A stretch of 64,000 nucleotides of DNA from a virus (IMGVR_UViG_3300029485_000297), one strand, 5' to 3'. Counted from the first letter of the stretch, positions 29,770 through 59,360 are shown. Notes: a model not told the origin generated them from the letters alone. Translations and numbers: made by a program.

Positions 29770-31158
29770 ATGGGAAACAATAGAATGACAATTTGTAGAA
29801 AAATTAAATTATTTCCAGTAGGAGATAAGGATGAAATCAATAGAGTATATAACTTTATTAGAAATGGTCAGTATGCTCAATATCAGGCTTGTAACCTGCT
29901 TATGGGACAGCTTATGAGTGAATATTACAAATATAATCGTGATATTAAGAATGAAGAATTTAAGGCAAGACAGAAAGAAATAATGACAAACTCTAATATC
30001 ATATTAAAAGATATTGATTTTGCAACTGGTGTAGACACTCCATCAGCCGTTACTCAGAAAGTCAAGCAGGATTTCAGCACAGCTTTAAAGAATGGATTGG
30101 CTAAAGGTGAACGAACTGTAACAAATTATAAGAGAACTAATCCACTTATTACAAGAGGCAGAAACTTAACTTTTTATCATGAGTATGAAACATATCATGA
30201 TTTTTTAGACAAGATTAATGATTCTGATTTGGCGGTATATGTCAAGTGGGTTAATAAAATTGTATTTAAGGTTGTGTTTGGCAATCCGCATAGGTCATTA
30301 GAGTTAAGATCTGTTATTCAGAATATATTAGAAGAGAATTATAAAGTGCAAGGAAGTAGCATTGAAATTGATGGTAAGTCAATCATTTTAAATCTCTCAA
30401 TATCTATTCCAAAACAACTTAGAGAGCTGGATGAAAATATAGTAGTAGGTGTTGATTTAGGCATTGCAGTTCCTGCTATGTGTGCTTTAAACAATAATCT
30501 TTACGAGAGATTGGCAATTGGAAATGCAGATGATTTTCTAAGAATAAGAACTAAAATGCAAGCTCAGAGAAAAAGATTACAGAAGTCATTACGAAATACT
30601 TCTGGTGGTCATGGTAGAGCAAAGAAACTGAAAGCATTAGAAAGATTGCAGAAAGCAGAAGTACATTTTGTTGAAACATATTGTCATATGATAAGTAAAA
30701 GAGTCGTTGATTTTGCTTTAAAACATAATGCTAAATACATAAATATTGAGAATTTAACAGGATATGATACAAGTGATTTTATCCTGAGAAATTGGAGTTA
30801 TTATAAACTTCAAGATTATATTACATATAAAGCAGCTAAATACGGAATAGAAGTAAGAAAAATCAATCCTTGTTATACATCACAGATTTGTAGTGTATGT
30901 GGTAATTGGGAGTTTGGTCAGAGAAAGTCACAGTCAGTATTTGAATGTGCAAATGAGAATTGTGATAGTCATAAAAAATATGAAAAAACTGGTTTTAATG
31001 CAGACTTCAATGCTGCCAGAAACATTGCAATGTCAACTCTTTGGATGGGAAGTGGACAAGTTACTGAAAAGAGTAAACAGGAAGCAAGAGAATATTATGA
31101 TATCTCTGAAAAATATGAACAAAGTAAGAATGGTTCAGAGAATAATAAAGTAGCTTAA
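29770..31158 (+). CDS. TnpB/Cas12-family RuvC nuclease, 462 aa (compact type V-like effector candidate)
   Basis: RuvC-I VVGVDLGIAVPA. RuvC-II KYINIENLTG. Zinc finger CYTSQICSVCG...CANENC. RuvC-III NADFNAARNIA. N-terminal MTICRKIKLFPVGD as in TnpB/Cas12f. RBS AAGGAG 29753-29758. Confidence 0.85.
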   Translation: MGNNRMTICRKIKLFPVGDKDEINRVYNFIRNGQYAQYQACNLLMGQLMSEYYKYNRDIKNEEFKARQKEIMTNSNIILKDIDFATGVDTPSAVTQKVKQDFSTALKNGLAKGERTVTNYKRTNPLITRGRNLTFYHEYETYHDFLDKINDSDLAVYVKWVNKIVFKVVFGNPHRSLELRSVIQNILEENYKVQGSSIEIDGKSIILNLSISIPKQLRELDENIVVGVDLGIAVPAMCALNNNLYERLAIGNADDFLRIRTKMQAQRKRLQKSLRNTSGGHGRAKKLKALERLQKAEVHFVETYCHMISKRVVDFALKHNAKYINIENLTGYDTSDFILRNWSYYKLQDYITYKAAKYGIEVRKINPCYTSQICSVCGNWEFGQRKSQSVFECANENCDSHKKYEKTGFNADFNAARNIAMSTLWMGSGQVTEKSKQEAREYYDISEKYEQSKNGSENNKVA

Positions 31159-43972: not shown

Positions 43973-44731
43973 ATGTTAGAGATTAACAAAATATACAATG
44001 AAGATTGTCTTGAAGGTATGAAAAAGATTAATGATAAATCGGTTGATTTTATACTCACGGATCTTCCGTTTTCAACAACCCAGAATTCATGGGATGTGCT
44101 AATTCCATTCGAGTCGTTATGGGAACAATACGAGAGAATTATCAAAGATAATGGCTGTATTGCATTATGGGCGCAATCACCATTTGATAAGAAACTCGCT
44201 TGTAGTAATGAAAAGCTATATCGCTATGAATGGATTATCGAAAAGACCAAAGCAACTGGTCATCTAAATGCAAAGAAAATGCCTATGAAGGCACACGAAA
44301 ATGTCTTAATTTTCTATAAGAAACTCCCTACTTACAATCCTCAAATGACAGAAGGGCATACACCCGTACATTCTTATACGAAACATACAACAGATGGTAA
44401 TTGTTATGGTGCTACAAAAACTGGTATTTCAGGTGGTGGTAGCACACAAAGATACCCAAGAGATATTCTGCAGTTTAAGTGGGATACTCAGAAAAGTAGC
44501 TTGCATCAGTGTCAAAAACCTGTTGAAGCATGTGAGTATTTTATCAAGACATACACAAATCCAGGCGATTTAGTTCTTGATTCATGTGCAGGAAGTTGCA
44601 CAACTGCGATTGCAGCTATGAATACGAATAGAAATTACATATGTTTTGAGAAGGATAAGGATATTTTTGAAGTTGGAAGTAAGAGAGTTACTGAATATGC
44701 TCATCAGGATTTATTAATGAGTGCAACATAA
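43973..44731 (+). CDS. beta-class N6-adenine/N4-cytosine DNA methyltransferase
   Basis: N-terminal FILTDLPF (DPPY-type variant). C-terminal HQCQKPVEACEYFI...GDLVLDSCAGSCTTAIAA (H.tQKP ... FxGSGTT-type motif I). Confidence 0.65.
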   Translation: MLEINKIYNEDCLEGMKKINDKSVDFILTDLPFSTTQNSWDVLIPFESLWEQYERIIKDNGCIALWAQSPFDKKLACSNEKLYRYEWIIEKTKATGHLNAKKMPMKAHENVLIFYKKLPTYNPQMTEGHTPVHSYTKHTTDGNCYGATKTGISGGGSTQRYPRDILQFKWDTQKSSLHQCQKPVEACEYFIKTYTNPGDLVLDSCAGSCTTAIAAMNTNRNYICFEKDKDIFEVGSKRVTEYAHQDLLMSAT

Positions 44732-45663: not shown

Positions 45664-46389
45664 ATGGTTTATCAAGGAAGTAAAAATAGATTGGCAAAAT
45701 TTTTAGTGCCAATTATTCAGAAGTATATTGATGATAACAATATTAAAACTTACATAGAACCTATGTGTGGTAGTTGTTCAATAATAGAACAGATTAAATG
45801 TGATAATAAAATTGCATCAGATATAAATGATGAACTTATTGCTTTACTACAATATGCTAAGTCAGATGCAGAGTTATCTATCGCACCCGAAGATTGTTTA
45901 TTTGAACATTATGCGGATGTTAGAGAGAATAGAAAACATGGTACAAATAAATATTCTAAAGAATATACGGCTCTCATTGGTTATTGCGCATCCTATGGCG
46001 GTAGATATTTTGAAGGTGGATTTGGTAGAGATAAGACTGGTAAACGAAATATCTATGCTGAAAGAGTTAAAAATTTGAAAGAAGATTGTGAACTACTCCA
46101 AAATATAGATATTAGATGTTGTGATTATAAAGACTTTGCAGATTATAAAAACTGTCTTTTCTACTTCGATCCCCCATATCGTAATACAAAACAGTATTCT
46201 AAACAGTCAATCAATTATGACGAATTCTACGATTTTCTTCGTAAACTTTCAGAGAATAATATAGTGTTGATAAGTGAATATAACATGCCTAATGATTTTA
46301 AGTGTATCTGGCAGAAAGAACGTAAAGTGTTGCAGAAGTCAGATAGAGTTACAGGTGAAAAAGCAGTAGAAAAGCTATTTGAGATTTAA
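45664..46389 (+). CDS. Dam-family (D12-class) N6-adenine DNA methyltransferase, copy 2
   Basis: QGSKNRLAKFLVPII...YIEPMCGSCSI and LFYFDPPYRNT. Roughly 45% identical by eye to the 40187 copy. Confidence 0.7.
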   Translation: MVYQGSKNRLAKFLVPIIQKYIDDNNIKTYIEPMCGSCSIIEQIKCDNKIASDINDELIALLQYAKSDAELSIAPEDCLFEHYADVRENRKHGTNKYSKEYTALIGYCASYGGRYFEGGFGRDKTGKRNIYAERVKNLKEDCELLQNIDIRCCDYKDFADYKNCLFYFDPPYRNTKQYSKQSINYDEFYDFLRKLSENNIVLISEYNMPNDFKCIWQKERKVLQKSDRVTGEKAVEKLFEI

Positions 46390-47041
46390 TTCAAATGAAT
46401 CCTGTCTTTCATTGGGAGGTGATAACTTGAAGGAAGCGTTTAAAATGACTTGTACTGTATTATTAGTAGTTGCAATTATATGTGCTATGGCAATTGGATT
46501 AGTTTTAGGATTTAGTCTTTTACTATCTTTATTCCTGCCACAATCAATTGCCTTAGTTGGTGGTATTGTTTTAGGTATATTCACTTTTACTTTTGTAATG
46601 ATCTTATTTGATCAGAAATATGAAGAGAATAATTAATTGTGAGGTGTTTATGAATAAATATTGGGAAGTAGGAGAGAAAAACGAATTTGGCAAAGAATGT
46701 TATAAACTACATTTCAGTCAGTTCTATGAAGAAGAAAAGGAGAATGTAGTAGCTGGATTTGTTCAAGATGAAACGGATGAGAATGTTTATATTTATGTTT
46801 CAGAAGAATTAAATGTAGAATATGACACAATTATTGCTGATAGCATAGAAGATGCAAAACAACAGATTGAAGATATGTTAGTTGAGCATTGGAAAGATGA
46901 GATAGATTATCTTGAAAATAGAGTAAAAGCATTTCAAGATGACGAGAATTGAAACCGACATTTCATGGCAAGTTTGAAGCTACATATAGTGGTTGAATGA
47001 ATTGTAAAACACAATATATAGTAAAGAAAGGAAGGGATATT

Positions 47042-47554
47042 ATGAGTAAAACACTAATTGTAATTGATATGCAGAATGATTTTATTGATGGCTCACTCGG
47101 CACAAAGGAAGCACAGAGTATTGTACCTAATGTGGCAAAGAAAATCAAGAAGTATAGAGAAAATAGTAATAGTGTAATTTTTACAAGAGATACACACCCA
47201 AATAATTATTTAGAAACATATGAAGGAAAGCATCTTCCTGTTGTTCATTGTGTAAAAAATACAATCGGATGGCAGATATCAGATAAGTTAGATTTTGATA
47301 TTGACAATGACGTAGTTATTGATAAGACAACTTTCGGATGGACACATTGGGATGATTTTGATTTTACAGAAGTAGAAGTTTGTGGTCTTTGCACAGATAT
47401 TTGTGTAGTGTCAAATGTACTTATGATTAGAGCAAATTATCCTAACATTGATATTACAGTAGATGCAAGTTGCTGTGCAGGTGTAACACCTGAGACACAT
47501 AAGGCTGCATTAGAGACAATGAAGATGTGTCAGATTAATGTGATTGGAGAATAA
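47042..47554 (+). CDS. pncA: nicotinamidase (isochorismatase-fold cysteine hydrolase)
   Basis: LIVIDMQNDF start, DKTTFG lysine, GLCTDICVVSNV catalytic Cys motif. ATG 47042 after AGGAAGGG. Confidence 0.7.
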   Translation: MSKTLIVIDMQNDFIDGSLGTKEAQSIVPNVAKKIKKYRENSNSVIFTRDTHPNNYLETYEGKHLPVVHCVKNTIGWQISDKLDFDIDNDVVIDKTTFGWTHWDDFDFTEVEVCGLCTDICVVSNVLMIRANYPNIDITVDASCCAGVTPETHKAALETMKMCQINVIGE

Positions 47555-48110
47555 TATGAAGTACAGTAATTATATATCAAATATCTTTAAACATTTCAAA
47601 AAGATATGCGTTCATAAGTATTGGGTATTTTATTACTGTTGTAAAGCAGGAATCCCATTTCAAGGATTAGTACATGATTTATCAAAGTTTTCTCCGACAG
47701 AGTTTTGGGAAAGTGTTAAGTATTATCAAGGCACTTCAAGTCCGATTGATGCTTGTAAGAAGGTAAATGGTTGGTCAGCAGCTTGGATGCATCATAAGGG
47801 AAGAAATAAACACCATTACGAATATTGGCAAGATAATTTTGATAATGGTGGGAATCCGATTGAAATGCCAATGAAGTATAAAAAAGAAATGTTATGTGAT
47901 TATCTTGGTGCTGGCAGAGCATATCATGGGAAAGCTTTTAATTTTGAAAAAGAGTTGCAATGGTGGAAATCAAAGAAGAGTAAACCGATTGCTATGCACC
48001 CAAATGATATGGCATTCATTGATAAGTACATAAACTTATTTTATGAGTGCGAAAAGAGAGAATATGATATTGGAACAATATTCAATTTAATTAAGAAAGA
48101 AGGAAAATAA
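47544..48110 (+). CDS. hypothetical protein embedded in the NAD cluster, possible HD-type phosphohydrolase
   Basis: H(21)...LVHDLSKF...HHKGRNKHH...D spacing is reminiscent of HD domains. Overlaps the pncA end and abuts pncB. Confidence 0.4.
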   Translation: MENNMKYSNYISNIFKHFKKICVHKYWVFYYCCKAGIPFQGLVHDLSKFSPTEFWESVKYYQGTSSPIDACKKVNGWSAAWMHHKGRNKHHYEYWQDNFDNGGNPIEMPMKYKKEMLCDYLGAGRAYHGKAFNFEKELQWWKSKKSKPIAMHPNDMAFIDKYINLFYECEKREYDIGTIFNLIKKEGK

Positions 48111-48112
48111 TT

Positions 48113-49321
48113 ATGGAGCAGATCATTAACAGTTTATTAGAAACAGACGCATATAAGCTTTCAATGGGACAGGCTATTTATCATCAGTTTAGCGATTACA
48201 AGACTACTTGGAGTTTTAGATGTCGTAACAAGGATGTATTTTTTACACCTGAAATGGTAGAGGAAATCAAGAGACAGATTAAGTTATATTGTGGTCTGAG
48301 ATTTACAGAAGATGAACTTTCTTATATTGATAATATCAAGTGGATGAAAGGTTCATATGTAGATTTTCTGAGATTGTGGCAACCAAGATATGAAGATTTT
48401 GAAATTACAACAGACGCTGAGTGTGGATTGGCAATTGAGACAAGGGGAACATGGCTTAACACTTCTATGTATGAGATTCCAACTCTTGCTATCGTCAACG
48501 AGGTTTATTTCAGAATGGCTTACAACTATGATGAATTACTTGAAAGTTTCAAGAAGAGACTTGATGAAAAGTATGAAAATCTTAGAAGTGGTCATTGGTA
48601 TGTAGGTACTTTTTCAGAATTTGGTCTGAGACGTAGACTTTCTGCTGAAGCACAGGAGTTAGCTGTTGAGAAGTTTTCACATTTGAATGATACATTGCAT
48701 AGTCCATCTAAGTTTGTTGGTACATCTAATGTATATCTCGCAAAGAAATATAATCTCACGCCTGTTGGAACTATGGCTCATGAATGGATTATGTGTTCTG
48801 GTCAGGGCAACCACAAGCACAATCCAGCATATTCAAACTGGTATGCCCTAGACGCATGGGTTAGAGAGTATGGTGTGTTAAATGGTATTGCGCTCACAGA
48901 TACAATTACAACTGATTGTTTCTTGAAAGATTTTCAGTTGACATATGCAACATTATTCAGTGGTGTAAGACATGATAGTGGTGATCCGATTGAATGGGGT
49001 GAAAAGATGATTAATCATTATGAGTCACTTGGTATCAATCCTAAGACAAAGACACTTCTGTTTAGTGACAGTCTTGATTTTGAAAGAGCTGATAAGTTAT
49101 TCAGACACTTCCATGATAGAGTAAACGTTGCATTTGGAATTGGTACTTATTTGAGTAATGACACAGATGTTCCTGCTTTAAATATTGTAATGAAAACCAC
49201 TAAATGTAACGGTATGGATGTTGCAAAAGTGTCTGATGTAGAAGGTAAAGGTATGTGTAAAAACCCTGATTATGTTGATTATTTAAAGAGATGTATTAAT
49301 TGGAGAATGAATCATGAATAA
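48113..49321 (+). CDS. pncB: nicotinate phosphoribosyltransferase
   Basis: Collinear with E. coli PncB: SLLETDAYKLSM, FRCR, GTSNVYLAKKYNLTPVGTMAHEW, GIALTDTITTDCFLKDF, GVRHDSGDPIEWGEKMINHYESLGINPKTK, FGIGT, LNIVMK..CNG..VAKVSD..GK..C. Confidence 0.9.
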   Translation: MEQIINSLLETDAYKLSMGQAIYHQFSDYKTTWSFRCRNKDVFFTPEMVEEIKRQIKLYCGLRFTEDELSYIDNIKWMKGSYVDFLRLWQPRYEDFEITTDAECGLAIETRGTWLNTSMYEIPTLAIVNEVYFRMAYNYDELLESFKKRLDEKYENLRSGHWYVGTFSEFGLRRRLSAEAQELAVEKFSHLNDTLHSPSKFVGTSNVYLAKKYNLTPVGTMAHEWIMCSGQGNHKHNPAYSNWYALDAWVREYGVLNGIALTDTITTDCFLKDFQLTYATLFSGVRHDSGDPIEWGEKMINHYESLGINPKTKTLLFSDSLDFERADKLFRHFHDRVNVAFGIGTYLSNDTDVPALNIVMKTTKCNGMDVAKVSDVEGKGMCKNPDYVDYLKRCINWRMNHE

Positions 49322-49940
49322 AATTTTACTTATACCAGGAAGTTTTAATCCAATTACTAACGCCCATGTTGATATGGCATTGACTGCTAAAAAAGCGGTT
49401 AATGCCGATGCTATATTATTTATTCCTGCACATGATACATATGTTGCGAAGAAAAAGACTTTGATACCTGGATATTGTCGGGTATCGCTGATTAATTCAA
49501 TGCCAAATTGTGATGAAAATAATATGTGGGCATCCGAAGTTGAAACAACCAGCTTCTTTCCACAGAGGACATACAATACTATTACTCAGATAAGAGATAT
49601 GAATGAAAAAGATTATATCTTCAACGAATACTATATTTGTTTAGGAATGGATAACATTGAAACACTTACAACTTGGTATAATTGGAAACCGTTTGTTGAG
49701 GAATATAATTTTGTAGCATGTGTGAGAGAAGGTCAGAATCTTGAGACTGCTTTAAGAGAAGCAAATCTTATGGAATATAAAGATCACTTTACAGAAATTC
49801 AGATACCTGAAAATCATACTTCTTCAAGTTTGGTTAGAGATTTATGTGAACAAGGTGAATTTGAAAAGGTAAAAGAATTAGTCCCTAGAAATGTATATGA
49901 GTATTTAATTCGGTTCTATGATGTAATGAATCGAATGTAG
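49314..49940 (+). CDS. nadD: nicotinate/nicotinamide mononucleotide adenylyltransferase-like nucleotidyltransferase
   Basis: GSFNPITNAH ((H/T)xGH-type motif) and TSSSLVRD (ISxxxxR motif). 208 aa, the NadD size. Start overlaps the pncB stop. Confidence 0.6.
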   Translation: MNKILLIPGSFNPITNAHVDMALTAKKAVNADAILFIPAHDTYVAKKKTLIPGYCRVSLINSMPNCDENNMWASEVETTSFFPQRTYNTITQIRDMNEKDYIFNEYYICLGMDNIETLTTWYNWKPFVEEYNFVACVREGQNLETALREANLMEYKDHFTEIQIPENHTSSSLVRDLCEQGEFEKVKELVPRNVYEYLIRFYDVMNRM

Positions 49941-49956
49941 GAAGGAGAATATATAA

Positions 49957-50688
49957 ATGTTTGATGCTAAGAAAGTAAAAAATGAAATCGTAGAGTGGAT
50001 CAGAAATTGGTTTGAACAGAATGGTAAAGATTGTATGGCAGTTGTTGGTATCTCAGGTGGAAAGGATTCAAGTGTTGTGGCAGCATTATGTGTAGAAGCT
50101 CTTGGTAAGGATAGAGTAATTGGAGTCCTTATGCCACAAGGAGAACAAAGTGATATCGAATATTCAAAAATGTTGGTTGATTTTTTAGACATCACTAGAA
50201 TTACGTGCAATATCGAGGGTGCTGTCAATGAAGTGTTAGAGAGTTTTCAAGGTGTAGTTTCACCGACACCTCAGACAACAACAAATCTTCCTGCTCGTAT
50301 TCGTATGGCTACATTATATGCTATTTCCCAGTCAGTAAATGGTCGTGTTGCTAATACGTGTAATCTTTCCGAAGATTGGGTTGGTTACGCCACAAGATAT
50401 GGAGACGCAGCAGGTGATTTTAGTCCGTTATCACAGCTTACAGTTTCGGAAGTTAAGGCTATTGGTCGTGAGTTAGGACTTCCATCTGAGTTAGTAGATA
50501 AGACACCTACTGACGGTCTTTGTGGAAAGACTGACGAGGACAACCTTGGATTCACTTATGACACTCTTGATAGATATATCAGAACAGGAGAGATTAATGA
50601 TGGGGATGTAAAAGCGAAGATTGATTCAATGCATGAGAAGAATTTGTTCAAGCTTCAGCTTATGCCTTCATTCTATCCAAATTTCTAA
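49957..50688 (+). CDS. nadE: NH3-dependent NAD+ synthetase
   Basis: PP-loop VVGISGGKDSS, NLPARIRMATLYAI, TRYGDAAGDFSPL and GFTYDTLDRY are collinear with E. coli NadE. Confidence 0.85.
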   Translation: MFDAKKVKNEIVEWIRNWFEQNGKDCMAVVGISGGKDSSVVAALCVEALGKDRVIGVLMPQGEQSDIEYSKMLVDFLDITRITCNIEGAVNEVLESFQGVVSPTPQTTTNLPARIRMATLYAISQSVNGRVANTCNLSEDWVGYATRYGDAAGDFSPLSQLTVSEVKAIGRELGLPSELVDKTPTDGLCGKTDEDNLGFTYDTLDRYIRTGEINDGDVKAKIDSMHEKNLFKLQLMPSFYPNF

Positions 50689-50709: not shown

Positions 50710-51042
50710 ATGGAAATTTTAAATGTACCAAGAGGATACGGTAAATCAACAAGACTGATTATGAAAGCAGTAGAGACGGGATATCCAATTATCGTAGGAA
50801 CGGAGAGTATGAAACAGTATCTTTGTGATTTAGCAGAAAGAATTACTGATAAAAAGGTTAAGATTTATTCTGCATATGAATTTGCTGATATTGATGCAAT
50901 GAAAAGAGATAAAAATATTCTGATCGATGAGCTTCCACTTGTGTTGTCAATTCTGTTAAATACAAACGTGGAAATGGCTACTATGACAAGTAGTTCGCTT
51001 GAAAGATATGGTATTGAGCGATATAAGAACAGACTAAAATAA
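50710..51042 (+). CDS. small P-loop-like protein
   Basis: VPRGYGKST resembles a Walker A motif. 110 aa. Confidence 0.35.
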   Translation: MEILNVPRGYGKSTRLIMKAVETGYPIIVGTESMKQYLCDLAERITDKKVKIYSAYEFADIDAMKRDKNILIDELPLVLSILLNTNVEMATMTSSSLERYGIERYKNRLK

Positions 51043-51497
51043 AAATGAATGCGATATTTCATTAGTTTGTAGGAGTTTATTATGGGCTTAGGATTTAGAT
51101 GGTTTAAAGATTATAAAATATTAGATTCTGGTGAAACATATCAGGCATTTGGACATTGTTATTATGATGAATACTCAATTAAATATATCAACTGCGACTC
51201 TACATCTCATTCTTATTATAATGTAAGTCTGGTAAGAGAATTGTTTGAAAAGACGATTGGTGTTCAGTTCCCTAAATTACCAAACGAGGAGTGGATTGAC
51301 TCAAAGAATTATAAATTAAAATTAATTGAACCAATCGACATGTCCAAATATTGTGAAAAGATACTAGAGGGAACGGAAGTCGATGCTATTGATATGAGAA
51401 ATAGATTTGAATGCTTTAAAAAGTTATCAGATCAAGGATATTATATAGCGTATGATTGGGAATAACACCATTTTATATGGTTGCAGGAGGTAAAATA

Positions 51498-51935
51498 GTG
51501 AAAATTAAAGATAAAATACGAGACAAATTAAAACAATGGTTATTTTCAAAAGAGTTATCAAAATTTGAATCGGCTGAACAGAATTATAAAGATGCAGAAG
51601 ACTTATATAATAGGGCAAAAGGGTATCTAAATGCTGCAAAGGATGAATATAGCTGGTCATTTAAATTAGTTGATGATTGTCATAAGCTAATGAATTCTAT
51701 GATAGACGTTGGAACAGATGTAGGATTTCTTTCTAATGAGCATTCGTGGGCGGTTGTATGTATTAAAGGTCATCCAGAATATGTGAAATTTATTCCATTG
51801 TCGCATAAAGACGCACGAGATGTATTGGATTTTCTGAAACATTTTAAATATTCAGATAGAATTGTAGATTCTCCATTTGCGTTTAGAGGTATGGTTGACC
51901 ATTATATTGTGGAAAATCCGTTTTTGAAAAAATAA
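51498..51935 (+). CDS. hypothetical protein, paralog of 38613-39002
   Basis: GTG 51498 after GCAGGAGGT gives MKIKDKIRDKL, matching the start of the first copy. Core HSWAVVCIKGHPEYVKFIPLSHKDARDV...FKYSDRIVDSPFAF. Confidence 0.5.
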   Translation: MKIKDKIRDKLKQWLFSKELSKFESAEQNYKDAEDLYNRAKGYLNAAKDEYSWSFKLVDDCHKLMNSMIDVGTDVGFLSNEHSWAVVCIKGHPEYVKFIPLSHKDARDVLDFLKHFKYSDRIVDSPFAFRGMVDHYIVENPFLKK

Positions 51936-52086: not shown

Positions 52087-52917
52087 TTGAGTAATATAAA
52101 GAGTCCACTTAATTATGTAGGTGGCAAGTATAAGTTACTACCAATCATTATACCGATGTTTCCAGATAAGATAAATACTTTCGTGGATTTATTTGGTGGA
52201 GGTTTTAATGTTGGTATTAATGTAAAGGCTGATTACATTATCTACAATGATATATGTGAACAGGTAGTTGGTTTTCTAAGATATTTACAAGGTTCAAATA
52301 TTGAAGAAGTATTACATAAGATTGATTCATATATTAATAAGTATGGATTAACTAAAGAAAACAAAGAAGGATATTTACTGTTTAGAGAAGAATATAACAC
52401 AGGTATTAAAGACCCAATTAAATTCTATACGCTTTTATGTTATGCGTTCAATAATCAAATCAGATTCAATTCCAAAGGTGAATACAATATGCCTTTTGGT
52501 AAAGATAGGTCAAGTTTTAATCCCACTCTTAGACAAAAATTTATAGATTTTCATAAGCGGCTAAATGAAATAGACTGTAGTTTCTTAAATATTCCATTTG
52601 AGAGATTTGATTTTTCCGATTTTACGGAAGGCGATTTTGTTTATGCAGATCCACCATATTTCAATTCTGTTGCTACATACAATGAAAACGGTGGCTGGAC
52701 AGAAGAAATGGAGAATAAATTACTAGAGACTCTTGATACGTTGAATGATAAAGGTGTTAAGTTTGCATTAAGTAATAATCTCAAATATGACAATCCATTA
52801 CTTGATAAATGGAAAGATAAATACATAGTTCATTATTTAAAGCATGATTATAGCAACTGCAATTATCAGAAAAAGGACAAGAGTGCCGATTGTGAGGTAT
52901 TAATCACAAATTATTAA
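52087..52917 (+). CDS. Dam-family (D12-class) N6-adenine DNA methyltransferase, copy 3 (divergent)
   Basis: NYVGGKYKLL...FVDLFGGGFNVG and VYADPPYFNS. The start is probably TTG 52087. Confidence 0.65.
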   Translation: MSNIKSPLNYVGGKYKLLPIIIPMFPDKINTFVDLFGGGFNVGINVKADYIIYNDICEQVVGFLRYLQGSNIEEVLHKIDSYINKYGLTKENKEGYLLFREEYNTGIKDPIKFYTLLCYAFNNQIRFNSKGEYNMPFGKDRSSFNPTLRQKFIDFHKRLNEIDCSFLNIPFERFDFSDFTEGDFVYADPPYFNSVATYNENGGWTEEMENKLLETLDTLNDKGVKFALSNNLKYDNPLLDKWKDKYIVHYLKHDYSNCNYQKKDKSADCEVLITNY

Positions 52918-53065: not shown

Positions 53066-53593
53066 ATGACAAAGATTAATAGTCAAGAAGTATTATATAG
53101 CAAAGGAAACAATGACGAATGTATGACACCAAATTACGGTGTTAAACCGATAGTAAAATATATACCAAAAGAAGCAACGGTTTGGTGTCCATTTGACAAG
53201 GAAAATAGTGAATTTGTTAAACAAATTAGAGAAGCAGGTCACAAAGTAATCGCTACTCATATAGATAATGGACAAGACTTCTATACATATGAACCTGATG
53301 AGAACTGGGATTGTATTGTGTCTAATCCACCATTTACTAATAAAAGAAAAATCTTTGAAAGAGCATTAAGTTTTGGCAAACCATTTGCGCTTATTGCACC
53401 CAATACTTGGTGGAATGATGCAGCTCCATATCATTTGTTTAAAGATAAAGAATTACAAATATTATCTTTTAACAAGAGAATGAAATTTTTAAATAATGGT
53501 GTTATTCAAAATAAAATCACTTTTATGAGTGCTTATTGGTGCTATAAATTATTACCTAAACAAATTGTATTTGAGGAGTTATATATGGAATGA
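53066..53593 (+). CDS. small NPPF-motif methyltransferase-like protein
   Basis: CIVSNPPFTNKRKIF is a gamma-type adenine-MTase catalytic motif. Only a weak candidate motif I (VWCPFDKENSEF). 175 aa. Confidence 0.4.
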   Translation: MTKINSQEVLYSKGNNDECMTPNYGVKPIVKYIPKEATVWCPFDKENSEFVKQIREAGHKVIATHIDNGQDFYTYEPDENWDCIVSNPPFTNKRKIFERALSFGKPFALIAPNTWWNDAAPYHLFKDKELQILSFNKRMKFLNNGVIQNKITFMSAYWCYKLLPKQIVFEELYME

Positions 53594-58583: not shown

Positions 58584-59360
58584 ATGCAAAATATTGAATT
58601 ATGGCAAGGAGATTGTCTTGTAAAACTACAAGAACTAATTGATGACGGTGTAAAAGTAAATTCAGTCATATGTGATATCCCATACGGAACAACAGCTTGT
58701 TCTTGGGATGAAGTAATTCCATTTGATAAGATGTGGGATTTGCTTTATAAAATCACATACGATGATTCGCCAATCGTTCTATTTTCTAGCCAACCGTTTA
58801 CTTCAAAATTAATAAATTCCAATATCAACAATTTTAGAGAAGAGATAATTTGGCTTAAAAATAAATCTGCGAGTGGTATGCAATATAAACAGAAGCATTT
58901 GAAAGTCCACGAAAATATCATTGTATTTGCTAAGAATGGTAAATATACATACAATCCTCAGAAATGGGAAGTTAAAGAAAAAGAGTTTTTAACACAGAGA
59001 AAAACAATGAGTATTTATGGCGAAACAAATAATGTCTATGGAAATATGAAACGCAATAGAAAGCCTGATGACGGAACAAGAAATCCGATTAGCGTGGTGG
59101 CATATAAATGTCCTATCACAGCGGCTAAATCCAAAACATATAGTCCAGATATTGATATTAGAGTTCATGAAACACAAAAACCATTACTTTTAATGGATTA
59201 TCTTGTAAAAACATTCTCAAATGAGGGCGATATTGTGCTTGATTTTTGTATGGGAAGCGGAACGACAGGTGTAGCATGTATGAATAATAAACGTAAGTTT
59301 ATCGGAATTGAGCTTGACGAAAAGTATTTTGATATTGCAAAACAGAGAATAAATAATTAG
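58584..59360 (+). CDS. beta-class N6-adenine/N4-cytosine DNA methyltransferase, second copy
   Basis: N-terminal VICDIPYG. C-terminal HETQKPLLLMDYLV...GDIVLDFCMGSGTTGVAC. Confidence 0.7.
   Translation: MQNIELWQGDCLVKLQELIDDGVKVNSVICDIPYGTTACSWDEVIPFDKMWDLLYKITYDDSPIVLFSSQPFTSKLINSNINNFREEIIWLKNKSASGMQYKQKHLKVHENIIVFAKNGKYTYNPQKWEVKEKEFLTQRKTMSIYGETNNVYGNMKRNRKPDDGTRNPISVVAYKCPITAAKSKTYSPDIDIRVHETQKPLLLMDYLVKTFSNEGDIVLDFCMGSGTTGVACMNNKRKFIGIELDEKYFDIAKQRINN

Follow-up and report, generated by a model that had tools for sequence, protein, structure and literature searches.

The depletion of nicotinamide adenine dinucleotide (NAD+) is a common end-point of bacterial antiphage systems, and three phage pathways that rebuild it have been shown to defeat it. 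Two of these NAD+ reconstitution pathways, NARP1 and NARP2, were described by Osterman et al. (2024, bioRxiv 10.1101/2024.02.11.579819), where the rebuilding of NAD+ by the phage was found to overcome NADase defences. Another, NARP3 (PMC13464706, 2026), is made of a PnuC-like transporter and a NadR-like enzyme and was shown to defeat Sir2-HerA. None of the three is the deamidated Preiss-Handler route, and none is from phages of the dominant gut Firmicutes. According to Li et al. (2024, Microbiome, PMC11662467), a salvage or Preiss-Handler pathway is complete in 174 of 668 gut jumbo phages. In that work, which offers bioinformatic evidence alone, a pncB-nadD-nadE cluster was described, with Kuafu_71 as the example, and phage pncA was mentioned; such clusters were read as boosting NAD+, with phage and host pathways complementing each other. 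Similarly, the jumbo phage PA5oct is known to upregulate the pncA-pncB1-nadE operon of its host (PMC7318152). Here, we describe a cassette of five genes at positions 47042-50688 of a 64,000-nucleotide stretch of viral DNA, IMGVR_UViG_3300029485_000297; the whole of this stretch is called the window.

The cassette is read as a five-gene phage operon, captured from the host, whose products would lead from nicotinamide to NAD+ by a self-contained Preiss-Handler (deamidating) route and favour survival of NAD+ depletion. We give this reading, taken as a whole, a probability of about 0.5. Its parts differ in strength. That the genes encode the biochemical pathway from nicotinamide to NAD+ is highly probable, judging from the sequence, while the proposal that counter-defence is the main benefit is a tentative one, with somewhat less than an even chance of being right.

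Gene content and conservation of the cassette

All five open reading frames (ORFs) lie on the + strand, and the cassette is 3.6 kb long. The first is a pncA-like gene (47042-47554; 170 aa; Pfam PF00857 Isochorismatase, 4.1e-30), followed by a gene for a DUF5662 protein (47556-48110; 184 aa; PF18907, 4.1e-32). Next come pncB (48113-49321; 402 aa; PF17767 (NAPRTase_N) and PF04095 (NAPRTase)), a nadD-like gene (49314-49940; 208 aa; PF01467 CTP_transf_like, 3.9e-15) and nadE (49957-50688; 243 aa; PF02540 NAD_synthase, 1.4e-53). No internal stop is present in any of them. The genes are tightly packed: pncA and DUF5662 are 1 nt apart, DUF5662 and pncB 2 nt, and nadD and nadE 16 nt, while the 3' end of pncB overlaps nadD by 8 nt. 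A ribosome-binding (Shine-Dalgarno) site of the GGAG/GAAGGA type precedes every one of the five start codons.

An earlier note on this DNA had called four consecutive, partly overlapping genes for nicotinamidase, nicotinate phosphoribosyltransferase, nicotinate mononucleotide (NaMN) adenylyltransferase and NAD synthetase. Searches with the four sets of Pfam models named above gave a strong family match for each enzyme at the position proposed, and an intact gene is present for each of the four predicted Preiss-Handler steps. The genes are five and not four in a row, as DUF5662 sits between pncA and pncB. The sole overlap in the cassette is that of pncB with nadD; the other junctions are gaps.

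The product of the pncA-like gene is a predicted nicotinamidase of the isochorismatase/cysteine-hydrolase fold, which would hydrolyse nicotinamide to nicotinate and NH3. Its best solved relative is the pyrazinamidase/nicotinamidase of P. horikoshii (1ilw, 1.1e-16), and the further ones, mostly nicotinamidases, include yeast Pnc1, M. tuberculosis PncA and the enzymes of S. pneumoniae and A. baumannii. In the alignment with 1ilw, the residues D9, K95 and C121 are in register, as is the DxH...H motif formed by D50, H52 and H69. We take the former to be the catalytic triad and the latter the metal site, features that presumably distinguish nicotinamidases from other hydrolases of this fold.

PncB is a nicotinate phosphoribosyltransferase (NAPRTase) equivalog, with scores that exceed the cut-offs of both TIGR01514 (406 bits; cut-off 270) and NF003704 (482 bits; cut-off 379). 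The identity to E. coli PncB, on which the earlier call rested, is 40% and collinear across 402 aa (E 2e-98). The match to P. aeruginosa PncB (1yir, 4.6e-97) runs the whole length of the protein, and the GTMAHEW motif, including H223, is kept; the PHROG family annotated 'nicotinamide PRT' (phosphoribosyltransferase) matches weakly (3.9e-19). PncB is predicted to form NaMN from nicotinate and phosphoribosyl pyrophosphate (PRPP) (+ATP).

The nadD-like product is a predicted nicotinate/nicotinamide mononucleotide adenylyltransferase, which would convert NaMN and ATP to nicotinate adenine dinucleotide (NaAD). It carries both nucleotidyltransferase motifs, (H/T)xxH within GSFNPITNAH at residues 9-18 (TNAH at 15-18) and SxxxxR within TSSSLVR at 169-175. 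A profile of its homologues matches bacterial NadD structures over the full length (2h29 at 1.9e-22), whereas the eukaryotic nicotinamide mononucleotide adenylyltransferases (NMNATs) match the N-terminal half alone, human NMNAT1 covering residues 4-99. Of these homologues (n=88), nearly all were recovered from metagenome assemblies, the longest contigs reaching about 275 kb.

Similarly, NadE is recognised by TIGR00552 with 186 bits against a cut-off of 63.65 and by phrog_11189 'NAD synthetase' (1.8e-72), and it bears the SGGKDS P-loop at residues 33-38. Here too, the identity to the E. coli protein cited in the earlier note was recovered (31%, E 5e-25). The solved relatives are led by P. horikoshii 2e18 (1.4e-35), followed by F. 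tularensis 3fiu (5.5e-29). The CN_hydrolase (glutaminase) domain is lacking, and the enzyme is therefore placed with the NH3-dependent type of NAD+ synthetase, predicted to convert NaAD, ATP and NH3 to NAD+.

An identical PncB occurs in 95 blocks of the contig collection, and relatives of PncB were found in 167 IMG/VR stretches, many of them on contigs of 150-190 kb. Gene content, order and flanks were counted in the best 80 of these 167 loci. The full five-gene cassette, with its order kept, is present in 64 of the 80; two have a bacterial-type pncA-pncB-nadE arrangement, and three are short loci that lack nadE (two) or pncA (one), the missing gene falling close to, or right at, a locus end. 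The immediate neighbours of the cassette in the window recur in just 0-18 of the 80. As the cassette is kept while its flanks turn over, it forms a conserved island in a fast-changing region.

All five genes are under purifying selection. The ratio of non-synonymous to synonymous substitution rates (dN/dS), taken pairwise against the window copy in pairs that are not independent of one another, is 0.16 for pncA, 0.03 for DUF5662, 0.07 for pncB, 0.06 for nadD and 0.22 for nadE. The earlier note had named pseudogenes, and a recent capture with no conservation among phages, as grounds for doubting its proposal; the genes proved to be intact and constrained, and conserved as a unit as described. 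pncB and nadD are nearly invariant across relatives (median identity 96% and 99%), while pncA (40-100%) and nadE (50-93%) exist as highly divergent alleles, which suggests that alleles at either end of the operon have been replaced repeatedly.

Upstream of pncA lies an 89-nt leader with an imperfect inverted repeat, TTGAAACCGACATTTCA (GAAA-N6-TTTC; 46949..46965, + strand). A related leader of about 65 nt, GAAAGCGGAATTTC..., with the GAAA-N6-TTTC repeat, stands 5' of pncA in sister phages (aligned leaders, L007-L080), and it stays with the cassette although at least four different genes occur upstream of it. The repeat may be a regulatory site that moves together with the cassette, acting as an operator or promoter. 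A weak sigma-70-like match is present at 46993-47022, and promoter and terminator scans around the cassette found no enrichment over shuffles.

Extra ORFs are seen inside the cassette of some relatives. An ORF of 211-219 aa with a CxxxCxxC motif stands between pncA and DUF5662 (L008:4810-5445; also L011, L018 and L021), and its match to Pfam Radical_SAM is weak (0.0028). ORFs of the homing-endonuclease type, called from sequence motifs read by eye, occur at L011:7877-8680, L018:4117-4818 and L061:5264-5998, the HNH/AP2-like ones between nadD and nadE or after pncA, and the GIY-YIG-like one between DUF5662 and pncB. The enzyme genes flanking them remain intact. On the 3' side of the window's cassette, a 110-aa ORF (50710-51042) with a Walker-A-like GYGKST and a good ribosome-binding site starts 21 nt after nadE. 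It matches no Pfam family; it follows nadE in six of six contigs with an identical PncB and is present in only two of the 80 IMG/VR relatives. In sister contigs, a YpsA/SLOG-family gene (L001:13253-13759; PF06908, 5e-23) is found two ORFs 3' of nadE, a segment that two unrelated ORFs replace in the window (51082-51935).

The pathway and its possible benefit

Acting together, PncA, PncB, NadD and NadE would, by established biochemistry, turn nicotinamide, PRPP, ATP and NH3 into NAD+, and the NH3 that PncA releases would match in amount the NH3 that NadE uses. If the cassette is expressed during infection, NAD+ would be sustained from nicotinamide independent of the host enzymes. The main benefit would then most likely be the survival of NAD+ depletion, including that caused by NADase defence effectors, which release nicotinamide; Thoeris, DSR, SIR2-HerA and similar systems would be the candidate targets. 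Counter-defence is plausible because of the genomic setting, the entry of the route at nicotinamide and the precedents set by the NARPs. The surroundings suit it: at least seven DNA methyltransferase genes of the orphan type are spread around the cassette in the window, relatives carry Lar-like restriction-alleviation genes, and the region as a whole resembles one of accessory genes directed against restriction.

Several points weigh against the reading as a whole. The PncA-like protein scores under the NCBIfam equivalog cut-offs, and the best NCBIfam model for the NadD-like protein, TIGR00482, gives 103.4 bits, just below its cut-off of 112.45, so that we infer the substrate specificity of these two enzymes. 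The unit is not kept everywhere, since DUF5662 alone is missing in five of the 80 loci, and six have only pncB-nadE, lacking nadD, pncA and DUF5662. In three cases outside the lineage, on large phage-like contigs, DUF5662 has no NAD genes nearby. The deamidated route costs PRPP and three ATP-consuming steps for each NAD+ and does not recycle ADP-ribose, and a fast NADase may outpace it. In the Pfam listings of the window, there is no PRPP synthetase, Nudix or other NAD-related gene. Furthermore, the same genes would be equally suited to serve as a general NAD+ booster in niacin-dependent hosts. The sequence does not separate the two uses, and counter-defence is plausible but unproven.

This last use is the strongest alternative, and it is a substantial possibility, though we would not bet on it. 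The cassette would be a general auxiliary metabolic module, making NAD+ from dietary niacin or nicotinamide for the replication of a large genome in hosts that salvage vitamin B3, with no specific link to immunity. It is favoured by the fact that the cassette copies a host salvage operon, the pncA-pncB(-nadE) arrangement being common on chromosomes and their PncBs being 77-85% identical to that of the phage. The phage also encodes much of its nucleotide and DNA metabolism itself. The literature points the same way, since Li et al. (2024; PMC11662467) read such clusters in this way and reported that phage and host pathways complement each other, and PA5oct raises the expression of pncA-pncB1-nadE during host takeover (PMC7318152). 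However, the cassette lies amid accessory genes of the anti-restriction type, outside the replication module, and all phage NAD+ pathways tested to date (NARP1-3) counter NADase defence. The metabolic and the counter-defence uses are not mutually exclusive.

A more ambitious proposal concerns the fifth gene. The DUF5662 family is very large, with at least 8000 candidate clusters scored, and the near-invariant residues (in alignment numbering) are H21, H41-D42, H80-H81, H87-H88 and D116. From this pattern, the protein is a probable hydrolase of the HD superfamily, dependent on metal. The PDB yielded nothing in sequence or profile searches, Foldseek gave nothing significant, and the literature search found no paper that mentions DUF5662. 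The constraint on DUF5662, at a dN/dS of 0.03, is the strongest in the operon, and a test for wider linkage of this family to NAD genes led mostly back to the same phage lineage. It could be that the whole operon is a dedicated five-part counter-defence module, in effect a fourth NAD+ reconstitution pathway (the deamidated one), in which DUF5662 acts as a metal phosphodiesterase of the HD-GYP kind. Its target would be a nucleotide signal of immunity, which it would destroy, or a product derived from NAD, which it would process, for example a cyclic ADP-ribose isomer or an ADP-ribose derivative. The phage would then both stop the alarm and rebuild NAD+. We consider this proposal unlikely.

Another alternative changes the order of the steps and would still end in NAD+. 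In a Francisella-like order, NadE would act as a synthetase of nicotinamide mononucleotide (NMN) on NaMN, and the adenylyltransferase would act on NMN. The GSFNPITNAH of the adenylyltransferase matches what we take to be the N-terminal motif of dual-specificity eukaryotic NMNATs, and human NMNAT1 aligns with its N-terminal half. The phage NadE is of the short type (about 245 aa), and its second-best solved relative, F. tularensis 3fiu, is presumably the NMN synthetase of Sorci et al. 2009. Nevertheless, the best full-length matches of the adenylyltransferase are the NaMN-preferring bacterial NadD structures, the best match of NadE is an ordinary archaeal NH3-dependent NAD+ synthetase (2e18), and the host Lachnospiraceae have the same short NadE beside pncB. 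Such an order is, therefore, quite improbable.

The reading of the cassette as a deamidating route that favours survival of NAD+ depletion has consequences beyond this locus. The cassette is a clean and very prevalent candidate, short enough at 3.6 kb for direct synthesis. If it works, phages can adapt whichever salvage route their host uses, and DUF5662 would gain its first functional context. If it is a metabolic boost alone, it would still be a well-documented case of a phage lineage that took over a host operon a single time, completed it and retained it.

Probable host origin and phage setting

The host origin of the cassette is seen in PncB. The nearest bacterial PncBs are those of Agathobacter, Eubacterium uniforme, Butyrivibrio and Roseburia, all Lachnospiraceae. 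Among 80 Lachnospiraceae-type loci, roughly half have a pncA homologue directly 5' of pncB, and nadE is commonly just 3'; DUF5662 is never, and nadD almost never, found beside pncB in these loci. In Agathobacter (L087:5953-11177), an NrtR-like regulator is followed by pncA, pncB and a 628-aa glutamine-dependent NadE. This regulator is a 474-aa fusion of NUDIX, NrtR winged-helix and cytidylyltransferase-like parts, for which the phage cassette has no counterpart. That this locus is chromosomal is plain from the HflX and ABC transporters in its vicinity. As Lachnospiraceae chromosomes bear pncA-pncB(-nadE) operons, the phage cassette resembles a host operon to which nadD and DUF5662 have been added.

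In a neighbour-joining tree of PncB (no bootstrap), the phage sequences from full cassettes form one clade, sister to the Agathobacter sequences, with an internal divergence down to about 86%. The base composition of the cassette fits the phage, with a GC content at third codon positions (GC3) of 22-29% against an overall 31% GC for the window; most bacterial loci have 35-60% GC. The simplest account would be that an Agathobacter-like pncA-pncB(-nadE) salvage operon was captured once, long ago, without the NrtR-like regulator gene that stands at the closest chromosomal locus examined, and that the captured operon would then have been completed by a nadD gene of the phage lineage and the HD-like DUF5662 gene.

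The high similarity of PncB to its Lachnospiraceae counterparts might instead suggest host DNA that was captured recently and is selectively neutral or decaying. This is very improbable, given that all the genes are intact, with dN/dS values of 0.03-0.22 and a phage-like composition, that the phage PncBs are monophyletic and internally diverged to the extent noted, that the five genes are kept in 64 of the 80 loci despite the turnover of the flanks, and that the host operon has neither nadD nor DUF5662.

In the window itself, mostly small accessory genes are densely arrayed on one strand, and the cassette lies in this long one-stranded region of phage contigs that span about 150-280 kb. An alternative genetic code, considered for the many short ORFs, was rejected, as code 11 yields dense one-strand coding. 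Among the contents are tyrosine recombinases, TnpB, an SPFH protein, an RNA ligase, HNH endonucleases and a ParB/DUF6551-like protein. The orphan methyltransferases lie at 39206-40129, 40187-40912, 43973-44731, 45664-46389, 52087-52917, 53066-53593 and 58584-59360; C5, Dam-like D12 and N4/N6 types are represented, along with one weak Eco57I-like match. The TnpB gene (29770-31158) is Cas12f-like (TNB/OrfB_IS605), and 3' of it, tRNA-Gln(UUG) and tRNA-Lys(UUU) stand side by side (32494-32644); apart from these two tRNAs, the Rfam scan of the window gave no RNA. At 34377-36488, a 703-aa DUF8224 protein (phrog_1735, 2.6e-255) is encoded, which is about 55% identical to proteins of Bacillus phages such as TsarBomba and Bcp1. 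Relatives of it are present in 555 phage records, some of them of Salmonella, Klebsiella and Dickeya phages.

Capsid, tail and terminase genes are absent from the 64-kb window, and the identity of the element was drawn from longer contigs. Window proteins have identical copies on metagenome contigs of 176-278 kb, and an identical PncB is found on contigs of 229,559 and 278,172 bp; we infer that the window corresponds approximately to 54,063-118,062 of ERZ1303459 NODE_5. Downstream of the window lie genes for YorF/SSB, a DnaB-like helicase, primase, RecJ, a DnaE-type polymerase, a Dda-like helicase and thymidylate kinase. On walking out through related IMG/VR contigs, the first two steps met DNA-metabolism genes alone, and the third, upstream, reached an endolysin (phrog_435, 9e-60) and the large terminase TerL (phrog_2, 1.4e-17). 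The endolysin gene and the replication module are both close to the region that corresponds to the window, and TerL homologues share contigs with the cassette itself (IMGVR_UViG_3300045988_133010 and 3300029528_000070). With TerL on cassette-bearing contigs and endolysin on a related one, the attribution of the genes to a phage, as proposed from the start, stands.

Compared with the polymerases of cultured phages in the collection, the DnaE-type polymerase reaches 33% identity at best, and this divergence indicates an uncultured lineage of large tailed phages. Close DNA relatives of window positions 40000-64000 were not found in the annotated phage and plasmid collections, and a lower-stringency search with the cassette DNA returned short, unannotated human-gut fragments alone. 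The element is a large tailed phage of the human gut, and its host is probably a Lachnospiraceae. Upstream of the window, some 1.5-4 kb from its start, roughly 2.7 kb of DNA in which no gene was called (L169:3782-6497 and L170:3811-6571) divides leftward genes, among them dCMP deaminase and GIY-YIG, from the rightward accessory array that includes the window.

That the window is instead a segment of a bacterial chromosome or a plasmid, as the lack of a virion gene, the tyrosine recombinases, ParB/DUF6551-like protein and TnpB, and the toxin-like ORFs (PemK, and HicA weakly) in corresponding regions of related contigs might suggest, is scarcely credible beside the TerL and endolysin genes of same-lineage contigs, the homing endonucleases that interrupt the region in relatives, the phage-only PHROG families, two tRNAs and dense one-strand small genes of the window, and a search that found no plasmid match.

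Relation to known NAD+ systems

Among the demonstrated systems, NARP2 (nicotinamide phosphoribosyltransferase, NamPRT, and NMNAT; for example, in Vibrio phage KVP40) likewise converts nicotinamide to NAD+ with PRPP and ATP by means of phage salvage enzymes. It is, however, an amidated route of two enzymes that passes through NMN, whereas the present one would be deamidated, with four enzymes, intermediates nicotinate, NaMN and NaAD, and a need for NH3. The phosphoribosyltransferase of the cassette is an NAPRTase equivalog and not the NamPRT that defines NARP2, and the presence of pncA and nadE also indicates the deamidated route over NARP2. NARP1 (Adps and Namat) is also a phage operon that regenerates NAD+ from the products of NADases; it recycles ADP-ribose through ADP-ribose pyrophosphate (ADPR-PP) with a PRPS-like kinase and a NamPRT-like transferase, while the cassette does not reuse ADP-ribose. 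Similarly, NARP3 is a phage-encoded means of NAD+ restoration but imports nicotinamide riboside and uses a NadR kinase and adenylyltransferase. In the Pfam listings of the window and its flanks, PRPP-synthetase-like, second phosphoribosyltransferase, PnuC and NadR genes are absent. The earlier note had offered the cassette as a third solution to NAD+ depletion, a place that PnuC and NadR of NARP3 already hold (PMC13464706). The literature search found no paper that sets a deamidated route against a NADase defence, nor any 'NARP4'.

On the bacterial side, the closest systems are the NrtR-controlled pncA-pncB-nadE operons of Agathobacter (L087) and P. aeruginosa (PA4918-4920). These share the gene order, have a PncB up to 85% identical and are the likely source of the cassette. 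They differ in having a NUDIX/NrtR-type regulator and in lacking nadD and DUF5662, and the Agathobacter NadE is glutamine-dependent.

Parts of the arrangement are known from other phages. Uncultured phage records show pncB..nadE, pncA-pncB-nadE or nadE-pncA neighbourhoods, and Agrobacterium phage Atu_ph07 has a lone pncB gene; no cultured phage with the full cassette was found among the PncB matches. A record named 'Acinetobacter phage MD-2021a' (L409, CAKLQH020000008.1) was set aside. Its gene neighbourhood (serB, dtd, pncB, psd, phoBR) looks like a bacterial chromosome, and its pncB is therefore no evidence for a phage gene.

The cassette belongs with the known phage Preiss-Handler NAD+ clusters, and the novelty that had been claimed for a full deamidated cassette in a phage gives way to the report of Li et al. 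(2024; PMC11662467). The NAD-jumbo phages of that study have the same clustered pncB, nadD and nadE in uncultured gut phages of about 200 kb or more. The clustering of these three genes on a phage genome of more than 200 kb is found here as well, while many relatives are contigs of 150-190 kb. Kuafu_71 has three genes, and the hosts of the Kuafu clade are Bacteroidota; in contrast, the present cassette has five genes, with pncA and DUF5662 as the additional two, and its PncB is sister to those of Agathobacter and the Lachnospiraceae.

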